Positions 2,319-32,686 of a stretch of 64,000 nucleotides of DNA are shown here, one piece after another. Source of the stretch: a virus. Taxonomy: Duplodnaviria > Heunggongvirae > Uroviricota > Caudoviricetes. Location: IMG/VR virus record IMGVR_UViG_3300047548_000621, positions 8,200-72,199 of that record; one strand, given 5' to 3'. The position numbers and the translations under genes are program-made. Numbering within the stretch: position 1 is the stretch's first letter; each line of letters starts with the position of its first letter. The notes beneath the pieces are model-generated. The model searched no databases and was not told the origin of the DNA. It saw only the letters and a program-made list of their open reading frames with translations.

Positions 2319-2990
2319 ATGCGCTTTAATGAATTTTCTCAGCCGCTAGACGAAGGCGTTCACGATCCAAATATCTTCAAAGCCGTGTTTATGGCAGGAG
2401 CCCCAGGTTCGGGCAAGACAACAGTTTCTAATCAGTTGTTTGCTGGGACTGGATTAAAGTCTCTGAATGTAGACGATTTCTATAACTACTTGCGGCAATC
2501 ACAAAAAGCAGTGGGAGATCCAGAACAAGATTATGCTACTGCTTGGGAAAAGTACAGAAAAAGAGAGCAAAACTATCTAGATGGTCGCCTAGGATTGATC
2601 ATCGATGGCACTGGTAAAAACCCAGCTATTATGAATGATGTTAAGACTAAACTAGAAGAAATGGGATATGAGACTGCAATGGTCTTTGTCAATACATCAT
2701 TGGATACTAGTTTAGAACGCACCACTCGTAGATCACAACGTCCCGGAAGAGATTATGGTAGACAGATTGATCCTAAGTTTGTAAAAGACACTTGGATGAG
2801 AGTTCAACAAGCATTAGGACAATTACAGAGTATCTTTGGAAACAGGTTCTTTATCATTGATAACAATCGCGGTGATCCCGATATTGCATATGTTCAGAAA
2901 ACATTGGACAAATGGCTAAAAGCCAGTCCCCAATCCCACATCGCTAAAGAGTGGATCAAGAACGAGCTTCAAGCTAAGCAACAAAAATAG
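2319..2990 (+). CDS. P-loop NTPase or kinase (AAA_33/zeta-toxin-like fold)
   Basis: Walker A motif GAPGSGKTT about 25 aa from the N-terminus, 223 aa. The ATG is only 18 nt from the divergent upstream start, so the true start may lie downstream. Confidence 0.5.
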   Translation: MRFNEFSQPLDEGVHDPNIFKAVFMAGAPGSGKTTVSNQLFAGTGLKSLNVDDFYNYLRQSQKAVGDPEQDYATAWEKYRKREQNYLDGRLGLIIDGTGKNPAIMNDVKTKLEEMGYETAMVFVNTSLDTSLERTTRRSQRPGRDYGRQIDPKFVKDTWMRVQQALGQLQSIFGNRFFIIDNNRGDPDIAYVQKTLDKWLKASPQSHIAKEWIKNELQAKQQK

Positions 2991-3282: not shown

Positions 3283-4812
3283 TTATTTGTTAAGATATTT
3301 CCATAAATTTATGAAATAATTGTCTGCATATTCTGCTGATCTTCTTTTGATTTCTTCGCTTTCATCAACTTTTTTCAAAGAGGTCTTCATCATTTCGTAT
3401 GAATCGTAACCCAATCTTGTTAGACCTGCTGCCTGATATGGGTCTAGCTTTCGGCGGCCCGAATTATATATCTGACTATACTGGTTGCACATAAACTCAA
3501 ACGCTGCTTTCCTGTCCCAAATGTCATTTTTCCAATTGTGGTACAACCCAGATGAACCTAACAATTCATATCCGTATTTTTTTGGATTTTTTAAAATGCT
3601 ACTGTCATCATATTGTCCGGGACCAATTGATAAACACGAAAGGCTTAGCGCATCCATTGGAAAATCTTCATCAGATAACAATTCTATATTCTTCTCTGCT
3701 ATCTCTGGCGTTTCGCCCGGAAGTCCTATAATATATCCTGCGCTTATACCCAAAGCAGTGTCGCTTTCTTCATAGATATCTCTTAGCTTATACAATGTTT
3801 CTATATTTTTTTCAGGGGAGCCGCCCTTGCCTATAGCCTTAGCAGCAGGAGCGTGTAATGATTCTAACCCGAAAAAATAACCGTTAAAATTTAAATCCCT
3901 CAACATATACATCTGTTCAGGTTTAGCTGCTAATAAGTCTAATCTACAGCATCCCATAAATTTCAAATCAATTTTAGACTTGTCTCTAACATAAAGCATA
4001 CGCTCTATGTTATCTGTGCGGTGATTAAAAGTATCGTCAATTATGATGTAGCTAGTTGTTCCAAAATTTTCATAGTTATACAAAACTTCTTCTAGAATAC
4101 AATCTTCGTGTCTCATATACGAAAGGTCGTTTTTATTTTTACCTAAGAGTGGATAGGTACAAAAAGCACATTTAAAAATACACCCTCTCGATACTTCTAT
4201 AGGCAAAGACTCATTGTTTGTTACCCCATCATAGTGTTCCCATATGTGAGTGGAGTGCCTAAAATCAAACATATCACCTTTCATATCATATGATATGTCG
4301 TACATAAAAGTTTTAGGATCGTAATGCGGAGCTCCAACTGTCTTACTATAGATAGGATCTTTGTTTTTCTTGATGCATTCAACAATGTCTAAGATCATTC
4401 CTTCTCCCATACCTCGAACCACGTAATCTACATTAAAATTATGGTGCCGGCCGTGATCAAGCATAACATGGGTATTACCCCCACCGTAGATTATCTTTAT
4501 CTTTGGAAATTTAGTTTTTACGTATTCGTTAATAAGAGAAAATGTATCATCACCATCTTTAAAAGTAGAGACTATGCCCGGCCTACTATCATCCATAAAC
4601 AAAGTACTACTATACCCTAAAAATAAAGTATCAGTGGATATTACCCTATCTAATAAGCGCAACAATTCAGTAGTTGACAAATGGCTCATATGATCAATGA
4701 CCAAAGCCGAATATCCAGATTTGCGCAGTACGTCAGCTATTCTATAAGCACCGAAGGGTTTAAACCTTGTAGTCCAGGTCGCGTCTGATAATATCACTGC
4801 GTTGAATGTCAT
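3283..4812 (-). CDS. B12-binding-domain radical SAM enzyme (class B rSAM-like)
   Basis: 509 aa. N-terminal Rossmann-like cobalamin-binding region, then CIFKCAFCTYP (CxxxCxxC radical SAM motif). Paralog of the adjacent 493-aa ORF. Confidence 0.7.
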   Translation of the reverse strand: MTFNAVILSDATWTTRFKPFGAYRIADVLRKSGYSALVIDHMSHLSTTELLRLLDRVISTDTLFLGYSSTLFMDDSRPGIVSTFKDGDDTFSLINEYVKTKFPKIKIIYGGGNTHVMLDHGRHHNFNVDYVVRGMGEGMILDIVECIKKNKDPIYSKTVGAPHYDPKTFMYDISYDMKGDMFDFRHSTHIWEHYDGVTNNESLPIEVSRGCIFKCAFCTYPLLGKNKNDLSYMRHEDCILEEVLYNYENFGTTSYIIIDDTFNHRTDNIERMLYVRDKSKIDLKFMGCCRLDLLAAKPEQMYMLRDLNFNGYFFGLESLHAPAAKAIGKGGSPEKNIETLYKLRDIYEESDTALGISAGYIIGLPGETPEIAEKNIELLSDEDFPMDALSLSCLSIGPGQYDDSSILKNPKKYGYELLGSSGLYHNWKNDIWDRKAAFEFMCNQYSQIYNSGRRKLDPYQAAGLTRLGYDSYEMMKTSLKKVDESEEIKRRSAEYADNYFINLWKYLNK

Positions 4813-4820
4813 ATCAGTAT

Positions 4821-6302
4821 TTAACTATATAGTTTTTTGATTTTTGAAAAATATTCTTGCTCTATCTTTACTTTTAACTCAGGTATATTAGGCTTTATAG
4901 TTTCGTCAAATGTTTTGAGTGGCATATCAATCAGGTCATCAAATTTTAGACCAAATCTTAAATAGCCGGCTATCGAAAAAGACGGAATCTTCAATTTTCC
5001 AGAATCATACAGAAACAAGTTATAATGATTGGCAATCTCTGCACATTTATGATAGTCCCAAACATCGTTTTCCCAAAAAGGATCGTTTGTTAATCTATAC
5101 CCATATTTTTCAGGATTGGCGTATAAACTACTTTTACCAAATGCACTCTCACTCATCCATAATGGAGACAGTCCCACACAATCTACCGGAGAATCATCTT
5201 CTATTAGACGATTTATCCAGTAATCTACTGTTTCCGGCGTTTCATATGGTAGACCAACGATATACCCTAGCATTAAGTTAACTTTATTGTTGAATGCATT
5301 TTTGAGCTTATGCATTGTTTCAAACAATTCTTCGGCCGGAGCATACTTGCCTATAGCCTTAGCAGTCTTCTCATTTAGTGTTTCAACTCCAAAATAGTGT
5401 CCGTTGAAGTTAAGGTCCTTAAGTAAACTTATTTGCTCTGGCTTCTTTGCAAGCAAATCTAACCTGGTATATCCTACAAAATTTAAATCTAATTTTGTTC
5501 TGTCTCTTGCTCTTAGCAACAATTCTATTTTATCATTGCGTTCATTAAAAGTGTCATCTACGATCATATATGTAGTAGTATTGAACTTTTCATAATTATA
5601 CAAAAGTTCAGAGTACAGGGAATCTTCCAAACGTATATACGAGGTGTCTTGTTTGTGCATTCCTATTAAAGGAAAAGTACAAAATGTACATCGGAAAATA
5701 CAACCTCTTGCAACTTCAAGAGGTAGGCATTCACCCTCTATTATAAAATCTGAATCGTGCCAAAAATGTGTAGAATGCTTATAATCATACAGCTTGCCTC
5801 TGAGGTCATATGAAATAACATAAGCACCATTTACTTTATAATCATAGTAGGGTTCAGTATCATTTGCTAGTGAGTTTACTAAGTCCAACATCATAGATTC
5901 TGCGTAGCCTAATACAACATAATCAGTATACGTTTCTCGTATTTTTACGAGTTGTTCAAGAATTACATTACTATTGCTACCGCCCACTATAATTTTTATA
6001 TTAGGGTATCTATTCTTAATATGTTGATTAATTGCAACGAAATCATCGTCTCCGTTATCAAAGGGAACTTTATGATTTTTTTTACTATGAAACAGGGTGG
6101 TACTGTAACCCAAGAATAAAGTATCATCAGTAATAATGATATCTAATAAAGCAAAAAGCTGGTCTAATGGCAATCTGGATACATAGTCTAATACTTGTAT
6201 TTCATACCCTGCTTTTCGCAGTGTATCAGCAATCGTATATGCGCCTAGAGGTCTAATTCTTTCATCAAATACTGCATCAGTGAGTATAACGCCGTGGATC
6301 AT
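4821..6302 (-). CDS. B12-binding-domain radical SAM enzyme, tandem paralog
   Basis: 493 aa with CIFRCTFCTFP motif. Collinear similarity to 3283-4812, including LFLGYS(S/T)TLF, GYI(I/V)GLP(G/Y)ETPE and NP(K/E)KYGY. Confidence 0.7.
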   Translation of the reverse strand: MIHGVILTDAVFDERIRPLGAYTIADTLRKAGYEIQVLDYVSRLPLDQLFALLDIIITDDTLFLGYSTTLFHSKKNHKVPFDNGDDDFVAINQHIKNRYPNIKIIVGGSNSNVILEQLVKIRETYTDYVVLGYAESMMLDLVNSLANDTEPYYDYKVNGAYVISYDLRGKLYDYKHSTHFWHDSDFIIEGECLPLEVARGCIFRCTFCTFPLIGMHKQDTSYIRLEDSLYSELLYNYEKFNTTTYMIVDDTFNERNDKIELLLRARDRTKLDLNFVGYTRLDLLAKKPEQISLLKDLNFNGHYFGVETLNEKTAKAIGKYAPAEELFETMHKLKNAFNNKVNLMLGYIVGLPYETPETVDYWINRLIEDDSPVDCVGLSPLWMSESAFGKSSLYANPEKYGYRLTNDPFWENDVWDYHKCAEIANHYNLFLYDSGKLKIPSFSIAGYLRFGLKFDDLIDMPLKTFDETIKPNIPELKVKIEQEYFSKIKKLYS

Positions 6303-6315
6303 AATTTTATTTAAG

Positions 6316-6407
6316 TGGCGGAGAGTGAGGGATTCGAACCCTCGGAACCAGTTTCCCAGTTCGCCTTCTTAGCAGGAAGATGGTTTAAGCCACTCACCCA
6401 ACTCTCC
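6316..6407 (-). tRNA. tRNA-Ser (GCU), class II
   Basis: Long variable arm. Anticodon loop CUGCUAA, acceptor GGAGAGU/ACUCUCC, CCA. Confidence 0.75.
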
Positions 6408-6413
6408 GTAGTT

Positions 6414-6833
6414 CTATATATTTAAATGCTGTTTAGCATTTTCAACATAACTTTCAATTCTTTCTTTTCCAACATTGTTCTTAGAATGCACTATATATCT
6501 AGGAAACTTCTTTTGATTATTTACGCAATATTCAACTAACCATTTTGCGCAATCATATCCGGTTTTTTCCGGTCCATAATCAAAGGTCTTTATTAAATCA
6601 CCGTCGTTGTATGTATAAGAATCTGCCTGGGCATTCTCCTCTAACATAACTGCATAATGAAAGTCCGCTAAATCGTGGTCAAAACACACAAACTTCGGCA
6701 AACCAAAAAACTCAACGTGTCTGACAAAACCGTCAAAGCTACGAGCTATAAAAATAGAATCATAGCGAGGAAACTCGGCCCACGTTACTTGATCGGGCAT
6801 TCTTTCGTCATCAAGAAATAAAACGTAAGACAT
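6414..6833 (-). CDS. Hypothetical protein
   Basis: The ORF-track N-terminus (to 6923) overlaps tRNA-Ser(UGA). The internal Met MSYVLFLDD at 6831-6833 is taken as the start. Confidence 0.4.
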   Translation of the reverse strand: MSYVLFLDDERMPDQVTWAEFPRYDSIFIARSFDGFVRHVEFFGLPKFVCFDHDLADFHYAVMLEENAQADSYTYNDGDLIKTFDYGPEKTGYDCAKWLVEYCVNNQKKFPRYIVHSKNNVGKERIESYVENAKQHLNI

Positions 6834-6849
6834 TGTTAATCCTAATAGT

Positions 6850-6937
<88 letters not shown>

Positions 6938-7727: not shown

Positions 7728-7899
7728 GATAAACTTGTTACGCTATTGCTGCAATATAGCTTCGGGACTTCGAAACCCGAACCTGGTCCCTATTGTCGCC
7801 TTATGGGCTATCGTCGTTCTCCGTGCTAGCCTTACACCACATCTACTGTCACCGTTTGCAACCGTAAAATGCAGCAATATTAAAACTTTTTATTGATTT

Positions 7900-8180
7900 T
7901 GGTATGAGCGGCGGGACTCGAACCCGCACGTCCAAAGGACACAAGATTTTCTTACCACTATAGCTTTCGCTACCCATTAGTTTGTGGTCTGGACTATCCC
8001 TTCATCATATCATGACTGACTTAGATGCCTGCCGTCTAGTCTCTACACCTTCCCTTTCGGGCTTGGCTCGGGATCAGCATTTTACAGCCTTCCCCGAATT
8101 TGACAGGTTCTACTCTAGAGATTTCCCTCTAGGCACTCAAATTAATAAGTCTCGGGCGTCTACCATTCCGCCACGCTCAC
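7900..8180 (-). tRNA. tRNA-Leu (UAA) interrupted by a group I intron (exon 1 at 8147-8180, exon 2 at 7900-7950)
   Basis: The two exons join to an 85-nt class II tRNA. Acceptor GUGAGCG/CGCUCAU, D-arm UGGCGGAAUGGUAGACGC, anticodon stem CGAGA/UCUUG with loop CU-U|AAAA, variable arm, T-arm GCGGGUUCGAGUCCCGC, CCA. The split falls between U34 and A35. Confidence 0.75.
7951..8146 (-). ncRNA. Group I intron (tRNA-Leu UAA type, 196 nt, no ORF)
   Basis: Follows a U at the 5' splice site and ends with G before the 3' exon. Carries recognisable group I conserved elements: P-like AAAUUCGGGGAA, Q-like AUCCCGAGCC, R-like GUAGAGACUAGACGG, S-like AAGGGAUAGUCC. Confidence 0.65.
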
Positions 8181-8240
8181 ACATTAAAACTTAACCAACA
8201 ATGTCAAAGAATAGAGTGTGTTTCTCACTCTGTATATCTC

Positions 8241-8409: not shown

Positions 8410-8413
8410 TATA

Positions 8414-8806
8414 TTAGAAGTGAACTACACCACTGTCAATGACAGGATGCTCATCGTCTGTGCGATCTACAATTGTGTAGGTGAATTTGGTTGTTCCAAA
8501 CTCACGGAGCATATCTGAAACACTGTCTAGTGTGAAATCTTTACAAGAGTAAAGATCAAACTTGAAAAAGGATGGCTCACCAGACCAAAAATGAATGCTA
8601 CTGTGACTAGTAGTAATGCCTACCATACCGGTAACACCTTCGTTACCTTCATCATCACAATATACGCAGATAGGATCAATCAATATTTTCATATCAACTG
8701 CTTCAACCAATCGGCGGAACCAATCATTTAGTTGGGGAACATACTCTGGGCCAGGAGCCTCTGCTAGGTATCCTGTAACCAGGACGTGCTTATTAACTTG
8801 AGCCAA
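8414..8806 (-). CDS. speD: S-adenosylmethionine decarboxylase proenzyme (pyruvoyl-dependent, SpeH/SpeD-like)
   Basis: 130 aa. The motif TTSHSSIHFWSGEP...FKFDLYSC matches the SES(H)xSIHTWPE self-cleavage region of bacterial and archaeal AdoMetDC. Confidence 0.6.
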   Translation of the reverse strand: MAQVNKHVLVTGYLAEAPGPEYVPQLNDWFRRLVEAVDMKILIDPICVYCDDEGNEGVTGMVGITTSHSSIHFWSGEPSFFKFDLYSCKDFTLDSVSDMLREFGTTKFTYTIVDRTDDEHPVIDSGVVHF

Positions 8807-8884: not shown

Positions 8885-8959
8885 TGGTAGCGCCGAGGAA
8901 TTCTGCCATCCTGACCTTTCGGGTGTAAACCGAATGCTCTACTTCTGAGCTACGGCGCC
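8885..8959 (-). tRNA. tRNA-Val (UAC)-like with non-canonical T-loop (GGCAGAA) and D-loop lacking GG; possible pseudogene
   Basis: Acceptor GGCGCCG/CGGCGCU, anticodon stem UUCGG/CCGAA with loop UUUACAC, CCA. The T-stem has a 53-61 mismatch and the T-loop has no TΨC. Confidence 0.45.
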
Positions 8960-10093: not shown

Positions 10094-10122
10094 ACTATAG
10101 CAGCCTGACAAATAAATGTCAA
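10094..10122 (-). promoter_or_regulatory. Sigma70 / T4-early-like promoter (minus strand)
   Basis: Minus strand reads TTGACA, 17 nt, TATAGT, just upstream of tRNA-Asn. Confidence 0.45.
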
Positions 10123-10685
10123 GCTGCTATTTTCAAGATCCTACTGTGCTTGGGAACACCTGAAATCAAGTAATCCATCTGATCCGCAAGAATGTTGCGG
10201 TTCTGTAGAATCAAGCTTTCATAGTGGTTCGGCTCGTAGGGAATGTAACGCAATTCCATACCACTTTGCTTTAATGTCTTGCAACCCTTCTTTTGGTTAC
10301 AGTCAAAGCAAGATGTTACGACATTAGTCCATTCGTCCAAACCGCCCAAGAACCTCGGGACAATGTGGTCACGACTCAAATCATACTTACTTGCGAAATG
10401 ATTTCCACAGTAAGCACAGATATGTCTGTCACGAGCAAACAATGTAGGGTTCGTAAGAACTACTTTGTTGTGCTTTTTGAAATCGAAACCGTTACCCCTA
10501 ATAGCAATAATGCTAGGAGTTTCTAGATAGCTACGAGTACCATCGTTCTTGTAACCACCGTTGTATCTAGCAATTACATCACCTAGACTCCAAGCTACCA
10601 GATTTTTTGCGTGATACGAAATTGCTTCGTCGTGGGAGACCCACGTTCTGGGGACACCCGATATGTCTAAGGCTAGAACTGCCAT
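10119..10685 (-). CDS. HNH homing endonuclease
   Basis: 188 aa with the motif YCGN...DHIVP...CFDCNQKKG. Confidence 0.6.
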   Translation of the reverse strand: MAVLALDISGVPRTWVSHDEAISYHAKNLVAWSLGDVIARYNGGYKNDGTRSYLETPSIIAIRGNGFDFKKHNKVVLTNPTLFARDRHICAYCGNHFASKYDLSRDHIVPRFLGGLDEWTNVVTSCFDCNQKKGCKTLKQSGMELRYIPYEPNHYESLILQNRNILADQMDYLISGVPKHSRILKIAA

Positions 10686-12732: not shown

Positions 12733-12808
12733 TGGTGCCGCCTCGAGGTTTCGATCCCCGTTCTTCGGTGCTTCAAACCGACGCTATCACCAGATCAGCT
12801 AAAGCGGC
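12733..12808 (-). tRNA. tRNA-Phe (GAA)
   Basis: Anticodon stem UCGGU/ACCGA with loop UUGAAGC, T-loop AUCGAAA, CCA. Confidence 0.65.
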
Positions 12809-13360
12809 ATTTAAGTCATTATATTGTTCTTTCTCTATAATGAGAATCTTCTTGTCAGGATGCTGTTCTATTACTGCATCCATCTTAGCTCTATCATTGC
12901 CCCACCATCTGCCCTTTATCTCAACATAAAGATCAAAAGCAGGAAGATAGAAATCAGGAGTGTAGTTCTTTGTTATTCCATCTAGAACATACTTCCAAGA
13001 CTTGCATCTTTCCCAAGCAATGTTATTATCGTTACAGTATAAAGCAAAAGTCCTTTCCCAGGTACCTTGCACTTTCTTACCGCTCACTTCAAACCATTTA
13101 CTCTTGCCACCTGGATTATGCTGTGACATTCGTTCGGACAATCGTTTACGAGCATCCTCGCCCATTACAGTAGGACCGTATTCAGCAATGCGAAGTTTTG
13201 TAGCTTCAGATTTAGTCCTAGTAATTAGGTCGCCGCGATTTTTGGCATTGACCAATGAGTTAAAAGCGAGTCCGTGCTTCTGTTGCAGGCCTCTAAAGCT
13301 CAACCCAGCGTCATAATCTTTCTGTATTTCAGCCCAATCGTAATGTTTCTTGTGTGGCAT
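12773..13360 (-). CDS. PD-(D/E)XK-family nuclease with N-terminal helix-turn-helix (putative homing endonuclease)
   Basis: 195 aa. The motif PDFYLP...DLYVEIKG fits PD...(D/E)xK. The 3' end overlaps tRNA-Phe and the start codon abuts a tRNA 5'-half remnant. Confidence 0.5.
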   Translation of the reverse strand: MPHKKHYDWAEIQKDYDAGLSFRGLQQKHGLAFNSLVNAKNRGDLITRTKSEATKLRIAEYGPTVMGEDARKRLSERMSQHNPGGKSKWFEVSGKKVQGTWERTFALYCNDNNIAWERCKSWKYVLDGITKNYTPDFYLPAFDLYVEIKGRWWGNDRAKMDAVIEQHPDKKILIIEKEQYNDLNAALADLVIASV

Positions 13361-13763: not shown

Positions 13764-13948
13764 TGGTGAGGGCGACCAGATTCGAACTGGCAGAAGTCGT
13801 TACCAAAGCATTACCAGTGGCTGCCATCAGGTTCAAAGACTGCCGCGAGTCTACAAAAAATACCCCTAGGCACTTGCGAACAAACTCGGGTGTTACCCCA
13901 ATCGTTCCTTACTTTAACGATGCGTATACCTATTTCCGCTACGCCCTC
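13764..13948 (-). ncRNA. tRNA-like RNA with a ~105-nt insertion between the anticodon-stem halves
   Basis: 5' part has acceptor GAGGGCG, D-arm GCGGAAAUAGGUAUACGC and stem UCGUU. 3' part has AACGA, a 5-nt variable loop, T-arm GCCAGUUCGAAUCUGGU, acceptor CGCCCUC, A, CCA. The two parts are separated by about 105 nt that contains a second AACGA. Confidence 0.4.
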
Positions 13949-14198: not shown

Positions 14199-14274
14199 TG
14201 GTCGGGAAGACAGGGATCGAACCTGCGACCTCGGCGTCCCGAACGCCGCGCTCTACCACCTGAGCTACTTCCCG
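14199..14274 (-). tRNA. tRNA-Pro (CGG)
   Basis: Anticodon stem CGGCG/CGCCG with loop UUCGGGA, T-arm GCAGGUUCGAUCCCUGU, CCA. Confidence 0.7.
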
Positions 14275-14410
14275 TTGTTATTCTTTAATCTATCAAAAGC
14301 ACGTTTCATCCGCGCTCTTGCTTCTTCTGCTTCTTTTCCTTTGAGGACTCTTACGCCCTCAAAAACACGGTTGCTCGTGTAGTTGCTAAAGTCAGGTAAA
14401 TCAGACTTCA
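14264..14410 (-). CDS. Small ORF (about 48 aa, MKSDLPDFSNYTSNRVFEGVRVLKGKEAEEARARMKRAFDRLKNNNGK)
   Basis: ATG preceded by AAAGGAAAUCAUU. The stop lies inside the tRNA-Pro(CGG) 5' end. The 124-aa ORF in the track looks like an over-extension across two tRNAs. Confidence 0.3.
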
Positions 14411-14427
14411 TAATGATTTCCTTTAAA

Positions 14428-14506
14428 TGGTCGGGATAGCAGGACTCGAACCTGCGACCTCTTGTCCCCCAGACAAGCGCGCTAAACCAGGCTGCGCCAT
14501 ACCCCG
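14428..14506 (-). tRNA. tRNA-Pro (GGG)
   Basis: Acceptor CGGGGUA/UAUCCCG, anticodon stem CUUGU/ACAAG with loop CUGGGGG, T-arm GCAGGUUCGAGUCCUGC, CCA. Confidence 0.7.
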
Positions 14507-16226: not shown

Positions 16227-16300
16227 TGGTGCTCCCAGGAGGTACCGCCCCTCCGGCTCATCATTACCAATGATGTGTATTGCTTTTATACTATGGGAGC
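16227..16300 (-). tRNA. Atypical tRNA-Thr (GGU)-like with non-canonical T-loop (GGCGGUA) and D-loop (AAAAGCA)
   Basis: Perfect acceptor GCUCCCA/UGGGAGC with CCA. Anticodon stem CAUCA/UGAUG with loop UUGGUAA. T-stem GGAGG/CCUCC is perfect but the loop has no TΨC, and the D-loop has no GG. Confidence 0.4.
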
Positions 16301-16331: not shown

Positions 16332-16928
16332 TTAATTTAAAGGAAGTCCTCTTGATGCTCTGCCATTGCCCTTATTACGACCTTTCCAAGTCGGCGTAAT
16401 ACTATGACAATTAGGACAAACTAATCTAAGGTTGGCGAATTCGTTATTTCCCGCGTTGCCGTCAATATGATCTAATTCCAACGACAATTTTGCGCCGCGC
16501 CATTCCGATATGCCACATTCAAAGCAGTTGCTTCCGTACTCACGAATCAACGCAGTTTTGATAGTCGTTCGTTCGGTTAGGTTTCCTTCATATAATCGTT
16601 TTTTAGTGTCCTCTCTAGTAGGAATATGCTGGCAATCTGCACTACAATATTTTTTTACTAGGTGCTTAGAAGAGGTGTGTTTTTTTCCGCAGCCTGCACA
16701 TTCCCATTCTACTTTGGTAGCTCTATTTTTATTAGAATGGGTAGCGGCGCAAGTGTGGTTACAGAATTTTTTGTGCCTATCAACATATGATAGTGTTTTG
16801 TTGCATTCCGCACAAGAACTAGGAGAACTGTCATAAAGTTCTACTCGTTGCAGTTTTTTCTTTTCTAAGGTAGCTCTGGCTTTTTTCATACCAAGCGCGC
16901 CTGCTTCTGCTTTTGTTAGTTTTCGCAT
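16332..16928 (-). CDS. HNH homing endonuclease
   Basis: 198 aa. LELDHIDGN...LRLVCPNCH HNH motif, several CxxC pairs. Confidence 0.6.
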   Translation of the reverse strand: MRKLTKAEAGALGMKKARATLEKKKLQRVELYDSSPSSCAECNKTLSYVDRHKKFCNHTCAATHSNKNRATKVEWECAGCGKKHTSSKHLVKKYCSADCQHIPTREDTKKRLYEGNLTERTTIKTALIREYGSNCFECGISEWRGAKLSLELDHIDGNAGNNEFANLRLVCPNCHSITPTWKGRNKGNGRASRGLPLN

Positions 16929-16993: not shown

Positions 16994-17067
16994 TGGATGC
17001 CCCTCTAGGACTCGAACCTAGGTTGACGGATTCAAAGTCCGCTCTCTTACCACTAGAGGAAGGGGCA
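16994..17067 (-). tRNA. tRNA-Gln (UUG)
   Basis: U1-A72 acceptor (UGCCCCU/AGGGGCA), anticodon stem GCGGA/UCCGU with loop CUUUGAA, T-arm CUAGGUUCGAGUCCUAG, CCA. Confidence 0.65.
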
Positions 17068-17085
17068 ATGTCAACTTGTAGACAC

Positions 17086-17114
17086 ATTATATATGCGATT
17101 GCATAAAATGTCAA
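17086..17114 (-). promoter_or_regulatory. Sigma70 / T4-early-like promoter, near consensus (minus strand)
   Basis: Minus strand reads TTGACA, 17 nt, TATAAT, about 20 nt upstream of tRNA-Gln(UUG). Confidence 0.55.
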
Positions 17115-17120
17115 ATAAAA

Positions 17121-17196
17121 TGGATGCCCGAGATGGGGTCGAACCACCAACCTCCTGGTTCAGAGCCAGGCGATCTGCCAATTGATCTATCGGGCA
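17121..17196 (-). tRNA. tRNA-Gln (CUG)
   Basis: U1-A72 acceptor (UGCCCGA/UCGGGCA), anticodon stem CCUGG/CCAGG with loop CUCUGAA, T-loop GGUUCGACCCC, CCA. Confidence 0.7.
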
Positions 17197-27275: not shown

Positions 27276-27350
27276 TGGCGCGCTCGGTGGGATTCGAACC
27301 CACTGTCTCGGGCTTTAGAGACCCTTGCAATACCATTTAGCCTCGGGCGC
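27276..27350 (-). tRNA. tRNA-like gene, candidate amber suppressor (CUA), anticodon arm ambiguous
   Basis: Acceptor GCGCCCG/CGAGCGC (one C-A mismatch), D-loop with GG, T-arm GUGGGUUCGAAUCCCAC, G73, CCA. Standard numbering gives stem AGGGU/GCCCG (27-43 mismatch) and loop CUCUAAA. The alternative is a perfect 5-bp stem GUCUC/GAGAC with an 8-nt loop. Confidence 0.4.
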
Positions 27351-28963: not shown

Positions 28964-31204
28964 TTAAAAGTGAAGTCCCAACGAGACTCCATATGTCCTG
29001 GGCTCTCTAGCAAAAGCCAAAGACCAAAGACCTACTAGGTTTCCTGCGGCGTGAACTGGGCCTCTAGAATTAAGTAAATTGTGACCCCAAAATGTCAACT
29101 TAGCATCTGCGCCATTAAGTGAAAACGATGTAGCTACACTTGCATCTAATAGATTCAGCGCAGGTGAGCGAACACCTGGGTCCATTGTCAATACTTTATA
29201 ATTTTGTGTCCCGTTTGCATTTGAACTTAGTAAAATTCCAGGTCCTTGCGAATTATAAACATCGTGTGGACCTACGTAACGATAAGCAAGATTAAAATTA
29301 ACATTTTTTAGTGTATAATTAACACTCGCTGTTCCCATAAACTTTGGAGCGTAGATCATATCTACACTAGACAAGTCGTAGGTATCAGTCAATGGAGCCA
29401 AATTCGGGTTAGGAGAATTAATAACAAATCCATTATAACTCGTCTTTAATGCAGAAAATGAACCATTAAATGTTAAATTATTAACTGGCTTATATGAAAG
29501 TTCTAGCTCAACGCCTTTAATGTTGCTTGAAGCAACATTCGCAATTACGACCTCATTTCCGGTTGGGCCTCCTGGAATATTAGTAATTTGCTGCATACCT
29601 TTATATTTTGCAACAAATCCAGCAAGTGATATATTCAGTTTGTTATCAAACAAAGAAACCTTGGTTCCTAATTCAAAAGAATCAACAATCTCTGGATTGA
29701 ATGGTGTAGTTGCTGATACAGGAGTCAGTCCGCGTAAAGAAAATCCGCCCGAACGATAACCCTGAGACCAAGAAGCATATACCATAGTATCCTTGTTTAT
29801 ATGATAATCCACGCTAACTCTAGGAGTAAATCTATTGAAATTCTTAGATGAGTCTCCTAGTTGATAGAAGAAGAACTGGTTTAACCACTTCTTGTCGTGA
29901 GTCCATCTGCCCCCCAATTCTAATCGCAAGTTGTCAGTAATATTTGCGTTAACATCACTGAAGAAAGCGTAAGAAGTTGTTCCTCCCTTAGCAACTTGAG
30001 CATTAGGTAACGAAAGAGAACCCCCGACCCACGAACCAAAGAATCTAGTGTTCATTGCGTGGTAGTAGCGACCATCATAGAAATAAGCACCAACTACATA
30101 ATCAATAGAATTATTAATGTTGCCTGCTGCTCTCAACTCTTGACTATATTGACGAAATGTTTGTTGTCTATAGATAGCAGAAAAATCCAATGAAGTTCCG
30201 TCAAAATCCTGCCACTGATATTCGGTTGACTTCCTATAAGATGAAATGGATGTTAGCTTGACTGCATCAAGATCGTAATTCATTTCCAACGTCACTGATG
30301 GAGCAGAAAAATATGTTTTAGGTTCGTTACCATCAATAGTATTTCCAAAAACAGTGTATAAATCAGAAGTTAGATTGCGATTGCATTGGTTAGAAGGAAT
30401 TAATGCACAAAGATATTCGCCGTTTTTAGTTGTCGAAGAAACATAAGGATTTGATTCTTGAATCTGCTTCTCAACAGTTAATAAAGCATTAAAATTATTG
30501 CTGGGTTCATATAAGAAACTTGCACCGAAGTTTTCATTATTATATCCTCCTACACTCTTTCCATCAGATGCTCGGTGTAGGAAGCCGTCGCTTTGACTAT
30601 GAAAATACCAAAGCTTAGTAGAAATAGAGTCTGCCAACTTAGGCAAGTTTACTACTGTTTTTGCAGTGTATGAATTATAATTTCCGTAAGATACATCTGC
30701 CTTAACATCAAGTCTGCCTAGAGGTCTTGTTCTCTTGATATTAATTACGCCGCCTATAGTGTTTCTACCGAACAGAGTTCCCTGAGGACCTCTCAAAATT
30801 TCAAGTTGTGAAGTATCATACAAATCCAAATATTGTCCAGTGCTTGTTCCGATAAAGACACCGTCAACCACTACAGCAACTGTTGGGTCATAGGATTTTT
30901 CAACATCAGCAAATGACATTCCCCTGATAGATACACTTGCTGTTCCGGCTGCCGAAGGCTGTGCGTTGAAAAGCACATTTGGGGCAATGCCCATCAAGTC
31001 GCCGGTGTTTACATTACCGCGAAGATCCAGCGTTTTTGAATCAATTGCAGTGATGGCGATAGGAGTATTTCGTAGTTCTTCGTTTCTGTATCTAGCAGTA
31101 ACGATGATATCATTGGGATTTTCTGTCTCAATTTTATTAGGTGCAGCGATTGCACTAGTTGATGCTAATAATGAAAGACATAGCCCAAATAAATATTTCT
31201 TCAT
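28964..31204 (-). CDS. TonB-dependent outer-membrane receptor
   Basis: Internal Met at 31202-31204, with an AAGGAAAG Shine-Dalgarno, is taken as the start. Signal peptide, TonB-box-like DIIVTA and a plug region, about 700 aa of alternating beta-barrel pattern, C-terminal aromatic residue (...LGLHF). Confidence 0.7.
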   Translation of the reverse strand: MKKYLFGLCLSLLASTSAIAAPNKIETENPNDIIVTARYRNEELRNTPIAITAIDSKTLDLRGNVNTGDLMGIAPNVLFNAQPSAAGTASVSIRGMSFADVEKSYDPTVAVVVDGVFIGTSTGQYLDLYDTSQLEILRGPQGTLFGRNTIGGVINIKRTRPLGRLDVKADVSYGNYNSYTAKTVVNLPKLADSISTKLWYFHSQSDGFLHRASDGKSVGGYNNENFGASFLYEPSNNFNALLTVEKQIQESNPYVSSTTKNGEYLCALIPSNQCNRNLTSDLYTVFGNTIDGNEPKTYFSAPSVTLEMNYDLDAVKLTSISSYRKSTEYQWQDFDGTSLDFSAIYRQQTFRQYSQELRAAGNINNSIDYVVGAYFYDGRYYHAMNTRFFGSWVGGSLSLPNAQVAKGGTTSYAFFSDVNANITDNLRLELGGRWTHDKKWLNQFFFYQLGDSSKNFNRFTPRVSVDYHINKDTMVYASWSQGYRSGGFSLRGLTPVSATTPFNPEIVDSFELGTKVSLFDNKLNISLAGFVAKYKGMQQITNIPGGPTGNEVVIANVASSNIKGVELELSYKPVNNLTFNGSFSALKTSYNGFVINSPNPNLAPLTDTYDLSSVDMIYAPKFMGTASVNYTLKNVNFNLAYRYVGPHDVYNSQGPGILLSSNANGTQNYKVLTMDPGVRSPALNLLDASVATSFSLNGADAKLTFWGHNLLNSRGPVHAAGNLVGLWSLAFAREPRTYGVSLGLHF

Positions 31205-31306
31205 ATTTCTTTCCTTTATACTAATAATTATCTGAAATAATATGTTCCAAAAAAAATCCAGATAAGGCGGTGCCCACTCTTTCAAGCGGGCACCCATTTT
31301 ATCTAC

Positions 31307-32686
31307 TTACTTAGAAGTTTCTTTCTTAGCAGGTTTTGCGTTAGGTGCACCCAACTTAGTGATTACACCGTTGACAAGAGCCTGACCTTCTTCTGTCTGG
31401 CTAAGAGCAGTCAACATACCTGCAATGCTAGTTCCGCCCGCCGGGCTGAACACGCCTGCAAGATTAGACATACCGCTCTGTACATCACCGCCGTTAGCGA
31501 TGATCTTAAGATCAGCAGCCTTAATAGCTCCAGCCATTTCCTTACCAACAGCTTCGGTAGCTTCAACATTACGAATCTTGATGAGATAATCCTGATAACT
31601 CTGGTTCTCACCGATTTCCTTAGCAAGCGTCATTTGAGCGTTAACCGGGGCAAGCAAGATAGCCTTTTCAGCTTCACCCTTAGCGATACCCTCAGCCTGA
31701 ATACCTTCTGCATTCTTGAGAGTAGCCTGTAGATTACCTTCTGCAATCTTAATTGCAGCTTCACGCTCGGCTTCTGCACTCACCACCTTGACTCGCTGAT
31801 CCTGCTCTGCCTTAACAACAGCAACTTCACGCTCGATTTCAGCAGTCTTGACGCTCTGAACCTTCTGTACTTCCATCTGTCGTTCAGCAGTAGTCTTAGC
31901 TTCTGCCTGAACTTCCTGCTCACTCTTTTCCTGAGCGATGCCGACGATCTTTTCCTTTTCGGCTTCACGAAGACCGACAGTCTGTTCAGCTTCTGTCTTG
32001 CTCAATGCAATCTGTCGCTGGGCTTCAATTTCTCGGGATTCAGCTTCCTGCAAGTTCTTCGCAACTTCCATACGACTTTCCTTTTCAATAAAGGACTTTT
32101 TCTTCGCCATAATGTTGTGAATAACCTGGCTGTTCTGTGCGTCACGAATGTTCATAAACTCAATAGTCTTAACAGTCTGGACACCCCATTCCTTAAGACC
32201 TTCGTCAACAACAGCAGAGAATTCTGCGCCCATTGTAGCACGATCTGTCATAATGTGATCAAGGGTATACTTAGCAAGAACATTACGAACAGCACCTTGT
32301 AGAACACCAGATAGCTGATCCTTGAGTTCCTGGAAGTTAGAAACACGCTGGGCAGCAGTCTGACTATCGCTTACTCGGAAGAATGCACGAACGTCTACGA
32401 GAAATTCAAGACGATCAACGTCATATGCATCGTAATTGAGCAGGTTCAAGTCAAACACTGACAATGGGAACTTACTGACTGTGACACCGATCTTGGGAAT
32501 CCAGCTGGGGAATTCATAGTAGCTGTTGCCGGCTTCAAGTCCAGACCCATATGAGATAGACTTCTTACCTGACTGAACGATATGCACTTCGTTAGTAGGG
32601 ACAACAACGCGCCAAAAGAGGGCGCAAATAATGCTAATGCCGACAATAGCAGCAAGAGCAATCAAACCAATAAAAATCATATTCAA
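31307..32686 (-). CDS. SPFH/band-7 (flotillin-like) membrane protein
   Basis: 459 aa. N-terminal TM helix, SPFH-like region, then a long Glu/Ala/Lys-rich coiled coil (EAEKEKIVGIAQEKSEQEVQAEAK...). Confidence 0.7.
   Translation of the reverse strand: MNMIFIGLIALAAIVGISIICALFWRVVVPTNEVHIVQSGKKSISYGSGLEAGNSYYEFPSWIPKIGVTVSKFPLSVFDLNLLNYDAYDVDRLEFLVDVRAFFRVSDSQTAAQRVSNFQELKDQLSGVLQGAVRNVLAKYTLDHIMTDRATMGAEFSAVVDEGLKEWGVQTVKTIEFMNIRDAQNSQVIHNIMAKKKSFIEKESRMEVAKNLQEAESREIEAQRQIALSKTEAEQTVGLREAEKEKIVGIAQEKSEQEVQAEAKTTAERQMEVQKVQSVKTAEIEREVAVVKAEQDQRVKVVSAEAEREAAIKIAEGNLQATLKNAEGIQAEGIAKGEAEKAILLAPVNAQMTLAKEIGENQSYQDYLIKIRNVEATEAVGKEMAGAIKAADLKIIANGGDVQSGMSNLAGVFSPAGGTSIAGMLTALSQTEEGQALVNGVITKLGAPNAKPAKKETSK

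Follow-up and report, generated by a model that had tools for sequence, protein, structure and literature searches.

A compact ORF-less group I intron of the tRNA-Leu(UAA) class in the tRNA array of a probable large phage

The split tRNA-Leu(UAA) gene

The window considered here, meaning the whole 64-kb stretch of DNA that was analysed, carries an array of roughly 38 tRNA genes. On its minus strand, positions 8180 to 7900 read as the first exon of a tRNA-Leu gene, an insert and the second exon.

8147-8180, minus strand: tRNA-Leu exon 1, GTGAGCGTGGCGGAATGGTAGACGCCCGAGACTT; tRNA positions 1-34, with the acceptor 5' strand, D arm, anticodon-stem 5' strand and C32 U33 U34 (sequence, ARAGORN intron mode, intron-less syntenic alleles).
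7951-8146, minus strand: group I intron, 196 nt, ORF-less (Rfam RF00028, nhmmer profile, covariation, empty sites).
7951, minus strand: omega-G, the last intron nucleotide, at the 3' splice site (G invariant in 27/27 homologues; intron-less alleles).
7900-7950, minus strand: tRNA-Leu exon 2, AAAATCTTG...CGCTCATACCA; A35 A36 A37 A38, anticodon-stem 3' strand, long variable arm, T arm, acceptor 3' strand, A73 and an encoded CCA at 7902-7900 (sequence, ARAGORN, intron-less syntenic alleles).

This gene is missed by ARAGORN in its normal mode. A preliminary description, made from the sequence alone, had rebuilt an 85-nt class II tRNA-Leu(UAA) from two halves, placed the insertion at U34/A35 and suggested a tRNA finder in intron mode as a check. 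Run in that mode, ARAGORN returns exactly this span as tRNA-Leu(taa), c[7900,8180], and sets an intron of 196 nt at position 35. Joining 8180-8147 to 7950-7900 gives the 85-nt class II tRNA-Leu(UAA), and ARAGORN folds the spliced 85-mer into a clean class II cloverleaf with an encoded CCA; the anticodon is UAA whether the gene or the 85-mer is submitted. The insertion lies between anticodon nucleotides 34 and 35 (CUU/...g/AAAA) according to the sequence, ARAGORN and alignment with empty sites, and the junction of the spliced RNA is GAGACUU|AAAAUCUUG.

It is extremely unlikely that the locus encodes a tmRNA or another tRNA-like RNA and not a split tRNA, a candidate that the preliminary description had already set aside. 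Rfam does give a partial tmRNA match, but it covers 17 nt of the T arm only and scores 14.5 bits, far below the gathering score of 47. ARAGORN finds no tmRNA, and the two halves make up a whole tRNA-Leu with D arm, anticodon stem, variable arm and T arm. The tmRNA identity was accordingly rejected.

ARAGORN finds no second tRNA-Leu(UAA) gene within the 64-kb window. Across 16 long ORFs, UUA accounts for 29% of leucine codons (23.5 per 1000 codons). The spliced tRNA would read UUA and UUG, the former being the commonest leucine codon of the phage, and is probably put to use. The best matches of the exons, at 79-82%, are alphaproteobacterial; the margin is too small for this similarity to serve as a clue to the host.

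The insert as a group I intron

The preliminary description had taken the insert for a 196-nt group I intron, and its suggested search with Infernal and Rfam bears this out. The Intron_gpI model (RF00028) matches 8157-7970 on the minus strand at 65.7 bits (gathering score 50) and with an E-value of 1.9e-14 for the whole window. The match covers the full model (1-253 of 253) and is far beyond chance.

Homology to cellular tRNA-Leu(UAA) introns is seen with an nhmmer profile made only from 38 bacterial introns of this kind, which matches 8143-7952 with 141 bits (E 9.2e-43, profile positions 7-233). Smaller profiles of other tRNA introns score lower on the window intron: 109 bits for fMet, 83 for Arg(CCU) and 60 for Ile2 (Azoarcus type), the last two built from few sequences.

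The boundaries agree with this assignment. As first described, the intron starts after a U, U34 at 8147, and ends in a G at 7951, both invariant in 27 of 27 homologues. The exon-intron junctions are also fixed independently, since syntenic intron-less alleles run continuously across 8147|7950.

Also as first described, the intron has no meaningful reading frame: no ORF of relevant size and no homing endonuclease ORF was found in 7951-8146. Only two ORFs of at least 20 aa overlap it, a 70-aa antisense ORF starting with TTG and a 42-aa ORF that extends into the exon.

Protein-spliced tRNA introns of archaea and eukaryotes are short, lie usually at position 37/38, are flanked by a bulge-helix-bulge motif and are cut by a splicing endonuclease. 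An intron of this type was rejected: the insert lies at 34/35 and is a complete group I ribozyme in its structural elements.

Fold and covariation

The intron has an IC3-like architecture, P1 to P9 without peripheral extensions. Its elements, all on the minus strand, are the following.

8136-8138: internal guide sequence GAG; forms P1 with C32 U33 U34 (8149-8147).
8147 with 8138: U34-G wobble at the splice site in P1; UG in 27/27 homologues.
8115-8132: P2 hairpin CUAGAG-GGAAAU-CUCUAG with GAAA-type loop L2; 6/6 pairs covary, also in the MFE fold.
8102-8107: P3 5' strand CCUGUC, pairing with 8033-8028; 4/6 pairs covary, 100% of cells paired.
8028-8033: P3 3' strand GGCAGG (covariation).
8067-8098: P4-P5 domain, with the 'P' and 'Q' elements (covariation, Rfam alignment).
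8098-8092 with 8073-8067: P4, UUCGGGG/UCCCGAG; nearly invariant, one covarying pair.
8089-8087 with 8078-8076: P5, GGC/GCU; one pair covaries between GC and CG.
8048-8066: P6/P6a, CC...GG closing CCC-GAAA-GGG (alignment, covariation).
8037-8043: P7 5' strand, G-(A bulge)-GACUA, pairing with 7996-7991 and forming the pseudoknot with P3.
7991-7996: P7 3' strand UAGUCC, the 'S' element (covariation).
8003-8027: P8/P8a, CAUC...GAUG with hairpin GUCA-GUCA-UGAU (covarying pairs, alignment).
7955-7987: P9, CCAC/GUGG, 7987-7984 with 7958-7955; one pair covaries, also in the MFE fold.
7972-7961: P9a, UAGC-GAAA-GCUA, with the L9 GAAA tetraloop; 4/4 pairs covary, also in the MFE fold.

Covariation was assessed in 27 distinct pre-tRNA-Leu sequences from phages, whose identity to the window is 56-74% over the whole pre-tRNA alignment. 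The structure (P1-P9 and the cloverleaf) was drawn on the window sequence and the alignment made with MAFFT, which favours the register of the window. Paired cells make up 96.6% in these homologues but 31-42% in controls with slid partners, which argues against an alignment artefact. Changes on both sides of a pair occur in 45 of 76 pairs, and none of 500 shuffles reaches any of five measures.

The P3-P9 core, including the P3/P7 pseudoknot, is therefore a structure that the 27 homologues have kept in evolution. The MFE fold by itself gives P2, P3, P4, P5, P6a, P8, P8a, P9 and P9a (z = -2.2). The two results together support the core whose folding had been proposed as a check. The 'P/Q/R/S' strings picked out by eye correspond to the two strands of each of two helices, P4 (8098-8092 with 8073-8067) and P7 (8043-8037 with 7996-7991).

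P7, presumed to be the guanosine-binding helix, has six pairs with 100% of cells paired, one of which covaries between AU and UA (18:9). Its motif AGGTGTAGAGACTAGACGG is identical in bacterial tRNA introns, those of the Azoarcus type included. P1 has three pairs outside the anticodon stem, all invariant in 27 of 27 homologues; it is without covariation support because its pairs never vary. UUU at 8141-8139 may pair with AAA of exon 2 (7950-7948) as P10, a putative helix of three A-U pairs only.

In the homologue alignment P6a is a hairpin of variable length, and the window intron has its shortest version. P8 contains the internal motif UCUAAG/UAUGA; the homologue consensus is CCUAAG/UAUGG, which we take to be the 11-nt GAAA-tetraloop receptor. 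The lack of P5abc, the short P2, the GAAA loops L2 and L9, the receptor-like motif in P8 and the homology to Azoarcus-type introns all fit subgroup IC3.

The tRNA array and its genome

The window has a GC content of about 40% and nearly all of its genes on one strand. HNH endonuclease ORFs are interspersed between the tRNAs. Besides these, identifiable genes include nrdA/nrdB, NAMPT, a NadR-like enzyme, beta-helix tail-fibre-like proteins, a TonB-dependent receptor (Plug and barrel), radical-SAM enzymes, an SPFH protein and a peroxiredoxin.

The array is flanked by RNA-repair-type genes, namely a PNK-like ATPase and a cyclic-phosphate-processing receiver domain. Such flanking genes and HNH endonucleases make up a setting in which tRNA-directed conflicts occur.

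Could the contig be a cellular or plasmid-borne long tRNA array, and the intron one more bacterial tRNA-Leu(UAA) intron? Long arrays do exist in bacteria, according to the abstract of PMC8421152. The 64-kb window yielded no recognised capsid, portal or terminase gene, the receptor, SPFH, peroxiredoxin and radical-SAM genes are encoded there, and an exact 43-mer of the intron is without a match in IMG/VR, so that the contig itself is absent from this collection. The reading is nevertheless quite unlikely. The one-strand layout, the GC content and the HNH endonuclease ORFs amid the tRNAs speak for a phage, as do matches to PHROG tail-fibre and baseplate families (E 8e-75) and giant ORFs, the longest of 2321 aa. 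A 416-aa tail protein has homologues with 60-85% identity on 75 IMG/VR viral contigs, which reach 524 kb, and the nearest relatives of the intron all come from viral contigs and bona fide phages.

The preliminary description called the phage T4-like, which is at present no more than a candidate label. Scans of most, but not all, ORFs of at least 100 aa against PHROGs or Pfam recognised no T4 core gene (gp23 capsid, gp17/gp20 or gp43, for instance) in the window, which makes up 64 kb of a 120-kb contig. Its nrdA gene shares only 53-59% identity with the counterparts in myophages of Xanthomonas, Ralstonia and Stenotrophomonas. The 416-aa tail protein has no match in the PDB. Between 7500 and 8500, promoter-like sites show no excess over shuffles. 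TTGACA-N15-TAATGT adjoins the 5' end of the tRNA-Leu gene and TTGACA-N17-TAATAT adjoins tRNA-Trp; the position of both strings makes a promoter role doubtful.

Three further intron-mode calls by ARAGORN in the array (6316-6639, 14199-14506 and 16994-17168) were rejected as ghosts that join neighbouring tRNAs, because the tRNAs that they span are called separately in normal mode. A 185-nt tRNA-like gene at 13764-13948 has no match in Rfam, BLAST or an IMG/VR pattern search.

Alleles with and without the intron

Six metagenomic contigs (L353, L359, L344, L328, L376 and L345) share the tRNA order of the window, Thr-Arg-Ala-Pro-Val-Trp-Leu-Glu-Tyr-Met-Ser-Ser..., at 68-80% nucleotide identity. Their tRNA-Leu(UAA) genes are intron-less and continuous across GAGACTT|AAAATCTTG. 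Another contig with the same order, L331, has a 208-nt version of the intron, with a P6a 12 nt longer than that of the window. L331 and L353 come from lakes, and one larger syntenic contig, JACCDQ010273770, measures 318 kb. Exon differences in the acceptor and T stems go along with the intron and may reflect co-conversion. Presence and absence of the intron thus differ among syntenic relatives, and these alleles form a natural system for following how an ORF-less ribozyme spreads or is lost.

The same intron in other phages

Of 119 IMG/VR contigs containing the core motif, about 59 have the same intron at the same site, and many of these intron-bearing tRNA-Leu genes sit inside tRNA arrays. 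Homologues without annotation are also present in a cultured jumbo phage of Agrobacterium, Atu_ph07, and in two curated 'huge phages', LR756501 and LR756511 (735-kb and 595-kb genomes). In Atu_ph07 (MF403008) the intron-bearing tRNA-Leu gene lies at 112890-113251 with an intron of 278 nt, and splicing would give the junction GGACUU|AAAAUCC. Part of this copy is covered by an annotated 'hypothetical protein', and the genome paper makes no mention of an intron. The classical tRNA-Leu intron is therefore present in at least three public phage genome records and dozens of viral contigs. Atu_ph07 and A. tumefaciens C58 are a cultured pair, which makes a phage tRNA-Leu intron directly testable.

Longer relatives exist as well, with introns of about 690-700 nt, and one in LR756511 contains an HNH-type ORF. 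Intron-mode calls of 'Tyr(ata)', 'Phe(gaa/aaa)', 'Ser(aga)' and 'Leu(tag)' in viral contigs were rejected; they are tRNA-Leu(UAA) introns whose junctions ARAGORN had mis-set. Standard tRNA finders skip these split genes, so analyses of phage tRNA repertoires and codon usage fall systematically short of at least tRNA-Leu(UAA).

A near-identical phage for 7600-8500 was not found in INPHARED by megablast, which gave only tRNA matches of 36-57 nt. The closest relatives of the window intron are other phage tRNA-Leu introns, with 82-88% identity, followed by introns of alpha- and other proteobacteria with 69-80%. A neighbour-joining tree places it with other viral copies and apart from most bacterial ones, a grouping that may owe something to base composition and to the fact that the viral and bacterial sets were collected with different search motifs.

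Comparison with known introns

The intron is a new member of the known bacterial and plastid tRNA-Leu(UAA) class, found in phage tRNA genes. It has in common with this class the host gene, the insertion site (CUU/a...g/AAAA), the U at position -1, the omega-G and the core. It differs from the bacterial members in lying in a phage tRNA array and not in a cellular chromosome, in its length (196 nt against a median of 235 in the sample) and in its GC content (0.46 against 0.59). The preliminary description had likened it to the cyanobacterial and plastid intron. This holds for gene and insertion site but not for closest relatives, which are phage introns and then proteobacterial ones. Identity to the Anabaena intron is about 73%, for what we take to be the sequence of that intron.

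The small, structurally solved IC3 ribozyme of Azoarcus tRNA-Ile(CAU) and the Agrobacterium-type tRNA-Arg(CCU) introns have the same overall architecture. Their J6/7-P7-J7/3 string AGGUGUAGAGACUAGACGG is identical to that of the window, and they too have GAAA loops in L2 and L9. Introns of these classes from Comamonadaceae, Methylorubrum and Xanthobacter are 70-76% identical to the window intron. However, they belong to other host tRNAs and are inserted after position 36, whereas the window intron lies between 34 and 35, and their profiles match it more weakly (60 and 83 bits against 141).

Self-splicing group I introns are also known from T4-type and other phages (td, nrdB and nrdD/sunY; DNA polymerase, terminase and capsid genes). 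Those lie in protein genes, often with homing endonuclease ORFs, while the present one is ORF-less and lies in a tRNA anticodon loop. The core of the window intron is similar to that of phage introns in protein genes, such as those in the capsid gene of Pelagibacter phage HTVC120P and in helicase genes of crAss-like phages.

Hausner, Hafez and Edgell (2014; PMC3984707) noted that the known phage introns were all in protein genes, despite the many tRNA genes of phages. It is these genes, empty by that review, in which the present intron is found. The available part of Devoto et al. (bioRxiv 10.1101/356790) calls phage tRNA introns previously unreported. The 'enigmatic' introns of Lak megaphages that it describes are likewise insertions in tRNA genes of very large phages. 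In that part of the text they were located by tRNAscan in its eukaryotic setting, in tRNAs for Phe, Gly, Thr and Tyr, and are not assigned to group I; the window intron, in contrast, is unambiguously group I and lies at the classical Leu(UAA) site.

In the full-text-searchable literature, outside which most subscription journals fall, no description of a group I intron in a phage tRNA gene was found. The intron had been called unusual at first sight. It is so relative to that literature but not relative to sequence databases, where it is common in uncultured viral contigs.

Splicing and possible role

Taken together, the evidence makes it very likely that the locus is an ORF-less group I intron of the bacterial and plastid tRNA-Leu(UAA) class, inserted at U34/A35 in the sole tRNA-Leu(UAA) gene of the window, in a large uncultured phage. 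Its sequence suggests that it is self-splicing. The array transcript would be made from the minus strand, and the intron would fold to the P3-P9 core. P1 would present the 5' splice site by pairing C32-U33-U34 with GAG, including the U-G wobble. Free guanosine in P7 would then attack after U34. The terminal G (7951) would next occupy the guanosine site, and the freed 3'-OH of U34 would attack after G7951. The products would be the ligated anticodon loop CU-UAA-AA and a released intron of 196 nt.

Other views of its activity are conceivable. The insertion might be decayed and catalytically dead and the tRNA-Leu(UAA) gene a pseudogene, the phage using the tRNA-Leu(UAA) of its host. Syntenic relatives do without the intron, so that it could be a recent and harmful arrival, and its P6a is the shortest in the family. 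Yet the core helices are all intact in a family that keeps its pairs by compensatory changes; the U-G at the splice site, the omega-G and P7 match the invariant consensus exactly, and the exons give a perfect cloverleaf. The close relative L331 moreover keeps the same intron, with differences mainly in the variable P6a loop. A dead insertion is thus very unlikely. A real group I intron that is inefficient alone, and that needs a protein cofactor of phage or host (a maturase or an RNA chaperone) in vivo, is also unlikely. Many group I introns depend on protein help in vivo, and this one is small (196 nt) with minimal peripheral elements. It retains, however, the GAAA loops in L2 and L9 and the receptor-like motif in P8, and in small bacterial tRNA introns such loops and the P8 receptor stabilise the core without protein. 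The tRNA-Leu intron of Nostoc splices in vitro free of protein (PMC13011429).

The intron is most likely a selfish but harmless passenger, moving or being lost within the phage lineage. Since it encodes no endonuclease, its spread may go by recombination of the entire intron-bearing tRNA allele. There is a small chance that the phage tRNA-Leu(UAA) introns are instead a phage-adapted lineage, kept for a benefit and not mere passengers. If so, the intron could make the DNA of the anticodon region immune to homing endonucleases that target tRNA genes and circulate in phage tRNA arrays. It could also shield the precursor from host anticodon nucleases until splicing, or tie the supply of a tRNA for the commonest leucine codon to the GTP and Mg2+ state of the infected cell.

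Ribozymes of 196 nt are among the shorter natural group I introns in the samples compared. Compact ribozymes of the tRNA-Leu intron class are of practical interest, for instance in RNA circularisation, where they can serve as scaffolds.

The split tRNA-Leu(UAA) gene

The tRNA-Leu(UAA) gene is divided into two exons by an insert of 196 nt, which is preceded by a U and has a G, at 7951, as its last base.

8180-8147, minus strand: exon 1, GTGAGCGTGGCGGAATGGTAGACGCCCGAGACTT
8146-7951, minus strand: 196-nt intron
7950-7900, minus strand: exon 2, AAAATCTTGTGTCCTTTGGACGTGCGGGTTCGAGTCCCGCCGCTCATACCA

In default mode, ARAGORN calls no gene at 7900-8180. With introns allowed it reports tRNA-Leu(taa) c[7900,8180] and places an intron of 196 nt at position 35; these are exactly the coordinates proposed in a preliminary description made from the sequence alone. 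The joined 85-mer is a clean class II cloverleaf, with an acceptor pair G1-U72, a D stem of 3 bp, an anticodon stem CGAGA/UCUUG, an anticodon loop CU-UAA-AA, a variable arm of 4 bp, a T arm, and A73 followed by an encoded CCA. A tmRNA identity, dismissed in the preliminary description, is also rejected here: the Rfam tmRNA match is limited to 17 nt of the T arm (14.5 bits).

This tRNA would read UUA and UUG. In the long ORFs of the window, UUA is used more than any other codon for leucine, making up 29% of the leucine codons (23.5 per 1000). Because the window has no other tRNA-Leu(UAA) gene, this one is probably needed, and the phage presumably uses the spliced product.

Intron boundaries

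A 19-mer from exon 1 matched 64 metagenomic stretches. The tRNA-Leu(UAA) gene lacks the intron in 61 of these and bears it in 3. Six loci on other contigs (L353, L359, L344, L328, L345, and L376, the last on a 318-kb contig) have the tRNA order of the window: ...Thr(tgt) Arg(tct) Ala(tgc) Pro(tgg) Val(tac) Trp(cca) Leu(taa) Glu(ttc) Tyr(gta) Met(cat) Ser(tga) Ser(gct) Cys Ile Lys. They are 68-80% identical to the window on either side of the intron, and their own tRNA-Leu(UAA) has none. BLAST segments break at window position 7950 and restart at 8146 with contiguous subject coordinates. In alignment A2, which combines the window with syntenic alleles of both kinds, GAGACTT|AAAATCTTG is unbroken in the intron-minus alleles. 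The intron boundaries are thus defined independently by the intron-less syntenic alleles.

A further locus, L331, combines the window's tRNA order with a 208-nt version of the intron. It is 88% identical over 415 bp, and a longer P6a is the main difference. In their acceptor and T stems, the two intron-plus alleles are alike in sequence and differ from the syntenic intron-minus alleles. Such shared exon differences would be expected if the intron moved with flanking exon sequence, by co-conversion or by whole-gene replacement.

Intron family and structure

A match to the Rfam family Intron_gpI and a P3-P9 core fold had been proposed as checks in the preliminary description. The Rfam match, at 8157-7970 on the minus strand, spans the whole model length and scores 65.7 bits, above the gathering score of 50 (E 1.9e-14 per 64 kb). 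Rfam finds no further group I match in the 64-kb window.

Helices P1-P9 were drawn on the window sequence itself, after the layout of small bacterial tRNA introns, and compared with 27 distinct phage pre-tRNA-Leu sequences that are 56-74% identical to the window over the whole pre-tRNA alignment. In these 27, standard pairs occupy 96.6% of pair cells; shifting the 3' partners by 1-3 columns lowers the figure to 31-42%. Of the 76 pairs, 45 show changes on both sides. On each of five measures, 0 of 500 shuffles equalled the observed value. Covariation is found in P2 (6/6 pairs), P3 (4/6), and P9a (4/4), and partly in P8 and P5. Helix P4 and the P7 pseudoknot hardly vary and are paired throughout; no variation is seen in the P1 pairs C32-G, U33-A, and U34-G or in the terminal G. 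The core fold is supported by covariation in the phage homologues, and a thermodynamic fold of the intron alone recovers all helices except the pseudoknot (z = -2.2). The strings earlier taken for P, Q, R, and S elements are the strands of P4 (8098-8092/8073-8067) and P7 (8043-8037/7996-7991). An ORF scan of the intron found nothing of consequence, in line with the earlier remark that it carries no ORF.

GAAA-type loops occur at L2 and L9. The P8 motif is UCUAAG/UAUGA in the window and CCUAAG/UAUGG in most homologues; the latter we take to be the classical tetraloop receptor.

The element is a real group I intron, situated in a phage tRNA-Leu(UAA) gene, and is very probably functional. In every feature compared, namely host gene, insertion site, the U at -1, the omega-G, the core, and homology to the profile, it agrees with the group I family and with the tRNA-Leu(UAA) intron class, and it likely falls in subgroup IC3. 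It belongs to a well-known class and is not a new kind of element.

Proposed splicing

The intron, whose sequence, boundaries, and fold conservation are established by the comparisons described, would catalyze its own removal as follows. Once the array is transcribed, the intron would fold, and P1 would present the U34-G pair. An exogenous G held in P7 would cut 3' of U34. The omega-G at 7951 would then take the place of the exogenous G, and the exons would be ligated. By analogy with the Anabaena intron, the anticodon stem probably helps to keep the exons together, and a short A-U P10 may play a part as well. The spliced product would decode UUA and UUG.

Relatives in phages and viral contigs

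A BLASTN search of 50,697 phage records with the intron found relatives flanked by tRNA-Leu(UAA) in three phage genomes.

LR756501/LR756503: 735-kb uncultured phage, full-length relative of the intron
MF403008.1, about 112890-113251, complement (locus L002, 1457-1818): cultured Agrobacterium jumbo phage Atu_ph07, intron of 278 nt at U34/A35
LR756511.1 (locus L245, about 600-760): 595-kb uncultured phage, 3' half of a group I core, then the tRNA-Leu(UAA) 3' exon

In all three, the intron sequence is flanked by halves of a tRNA-Leu(UAA) divided at U34/A35, and a split tRNA-Leu(UAA) is annotated in none of these records. In the Atu_ph07 record, a "hypothetical protein" CDS (AUZ94936) overlaps the gene at its 3' end. 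A list of 33 tRNAs is given in the genome paper, from which the word intron is absent (PMC6102473). In LR756511, the core half is preceded by an ORF with the HNH-type motif HHIDGD...CPNCH, and the locus looks like an endonuclease-carrying version of the window's intron.

A core-motif scan of IMG/VR matched at least 119 contigs, whose viral status is predicted, so that some may be cellular DNA. Among the 119 matches listed, about 59 have the intron at the same site of tRNA-Leu(UAA), after correction of mis-set ARAGORN junctions. Another 9 have it in tRNA-Arg(UCU), mostly between positions 34 and 35 (loci L009, L044, L051, L054, L068, L074, L078, L085, and L088). Many intron-bearing viral genes lie within tRNA arrays; for instance, L102 has 22 tRNAs in 14 kb. 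At L005, L047, L060, L062, L066, and L071, the tRNA-Leu(UAA) introns reach about 690-700 nt.

The GenBank record of Microcoleus phage My-WqHQDG (locus L003, 811-1096) annotates a 286-nt tRNA-Arg, anticodon CCU, that contains a related intron, so annotation pipelines have met such genes. Together with the tRNA-Arg(UCU) contigs, this gene takes phage tRNA introns beyond tRNA-Leu.

Six IMG/VR loci (L015, L037, L046, L064, L099, and L118) have the same intron in a UAA-anticodon tRNA without a long variable arm. These tRNAs are class I-like, roughly 70-75 nt when spliced, and are predicted to read leucine codons without the usual tRNA-Leu shape.

In Gordonia phage Daredevil (NC_048021; locus L247, 440-751), ARAGORN in intron mode reports a tRNA-Lys(ttt), anticodon UUU, with a 238-nt insert at position 35. 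The insert coincides with a 74-nt BLAST match to the window intron core, at a place where the record annotates no feature, and is possibly a group I-like intron in an actinophage tRNA.

Relatives in bacteria

Bacterial genomes, one per species, were scanned with a P7 motif, which gave at least 120 matches. The intron type occupies tRNA-Leu(UAA) at no fewer than 46 loci, spread over Alpha- and Betaproteobacteria, Acidobacteria, and Bacteroidota; CAU-anticodon tRNAs (fMet and Azoarcus-type Ile2) have it at no fewer than 26, and tRNA-Arg(CCU) at no fewer than 3. These are the three main bacterial settings among the matches listed. Viral and bacterial frequencies are rough, coming from matches listed in two sets gathered with different motifs.

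Pairwise identity of the window intron to related introns
Viral loci L102 and L101: 88%
LR756501 and Atu_ph07: 82%
Bacterial tRNA-Leu(UAA) introns: 69-80%
tRNA-Arg(CCU) type: 73-76%
Ile2(CAU) type: 70-75%

The Anabaena intron, in the version of its sequence compared, is about 73% identical. An HMM built from 38 bacterial tRNA-Leu(UAA) introns only has one match in the window, covering the intron end to end (E 9.2e-43). Neighbour joining places the viral copies, that of the window among them, in one group away from most bacterial ones. This grouping is qualified by the crudeness of NJ on identity distances, by the GC of the two sets (0.41 in the viral, 0.59 in the bacterial), and by the different motifs used to collect them.

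Comparison with known phage introns

Known phage introns lie in td, nrdB, nrdD, polymerase, and capsid genes. The window intron differs from these in being in a tRNA and without an ORF. The preliminary description had called a phage tRNA intron unusual. A 2014 review places every phage intron known at the time in a protein-coding gene, although phages have many tRNA genes (Hausner, Hafez and Edgell 2014, PMC3984707). As to occurrence, the claim does not hold, since such introns are widespread in viral contigs. The large surveys of tRNA group I introns consulted are limited to bacteria (Williams 2020; PMC13011429). Devoto et al. described "enigmatic" tRNA introns in Lak megaphages and believed that no intron in a phage tRNA had been reported earlier. 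No account of a group I intron in a phage tRNA gene turned up in the literature searched, whose coverage is incomplete. Less ordinary are the intron's setting and frequency: it is widespread in the tRNA arrays of large phages, unannotated in published phage genomes, and polymorphic among syntenic relatives.

Genomic setting

The window has 38 tRNA genes, all on the minus strand and nearly all with an encoded CCA. ARAGORN with introns allowed gives 36, with a 185-nt "tRNA-Gln" call set aside, and Rfam alone gives 2.

8888-8959, minus strand: Rfam-only tRNA, 48.9 bits; syntenic contigs have tRNA-Val(tac) there
16230-16300, minus strand: Rfam-only tRNA, 48.5 bits, no ARAGORN call
10119-10685, 16332-16928, and 12773-13360, all minus strand: HNH endonuclease ORFs and an endonuclease I-like ORF, free-standing among the tRNAs
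2319-2990 (plus), 3283-6302 (minus), and 6414-6923 (minus): PNK-like ATPase, two radical-SAM proteins (one with a B12-binding domain), and a cREC_REC protein, flanking the array's low-coordinate end
28964-31297 and 31307-32686, both minus strand: TonB-dependent receptor of 777 aa (Pfam Plug and beta-barrel, E 1.7e-37) and adjacent SPFH/Band-7 protein

None of the endonuclease ORFs adjoins the intron; they could be homing-type nucleases on the tRNA array. The cluster at the low-coordinate end, which includes the cREC_REC (cyclic-phosphate processing receiver) protein, has the look of a module for repairing or modifying RNA, placed beside the tRNAs. Further genes include nrdA, nrdB, NAMPT, a NadR-like cytidylyltransferase/Nudix protein, and a peroxiredoxin.

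The contig is accepted as coming from a large phage on its gene content, which includes a series of giant ORFs, the longest of 2321 aa, matching tail-fibre/baseplate PHROGs, and a 416-aa beta-helix protein. Homologues of this protein, 60-85% identical, occur on 75 contigs in IMG/VR, some as long as 524 kb. The alternative, that it is cellular, is kept alive mainly by the TonB-dependent receptor and the SPFH/Band-7 protein, which would be unusual phage cargo; the PHROG matches and the beta-helix homologues speak against it. No capsid, portal, or terminase genes and no T4 core genes were seen in the window. Atu_ph07, a distant relative, has been described as Rak2-like with 16 T4 core homologues (PMC6102473).

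Other features of the array

The call set aside, at 13764-13948 (minus strand), is given by ARAGORN in intron mode as tRNA-Gln(ttg) i(34,107). The 7-bp acceptor stem of this tRNA-like gene, GAGGGCG/CGCCCTC, is perfect, and a D arm of class II-like form, the T arm GCCAG-TTCGAAT-CTGGT, and a terminal ACCA are also present. About 107 nt in its middle are an unexplained insert. The fold is not unusually stable (z = -0.87), and Rfam, BLAST of phage records, and an IMG/VR pattern search gave no match to the gene.

A lone tRNA with anticodon CUA, called "tRNA-Pyl" by ARAGORN, lies at 27276-27350 (minus strand), about 10 kb off the main array. Possibly it is an amber suppressor, which would hint that TAG is read through or recoded in some part of the phage.

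Promoter-like strings stand before two tRNAs and are absent before the others of the array. TTGACA-N15-TAATGT, at 8181-8207 (minus strand), runs right up to base 1 of tRNA-Leu; TTGACA-N17-TAATAT, at 8411-8439 (minus strand), does the same at tRNA-Trp. Their distance to the mature 5' ends is too short for an ordinary promoter.

The 172-nt spacer between tRNA-Leu(UAA) and tRNA-Glu (7728-7899, minus strand) matches no Rfam family at E up to 1. It has a multi-branched fold with a 10-bp closing stem, UAUUGCUGCA/UGCAGCAAUA (z = -2.7; 0 of 200 shuffles as stable), and holds a T-arm-like hairpin, CGGG-UUUCGAAGU-CCCG.
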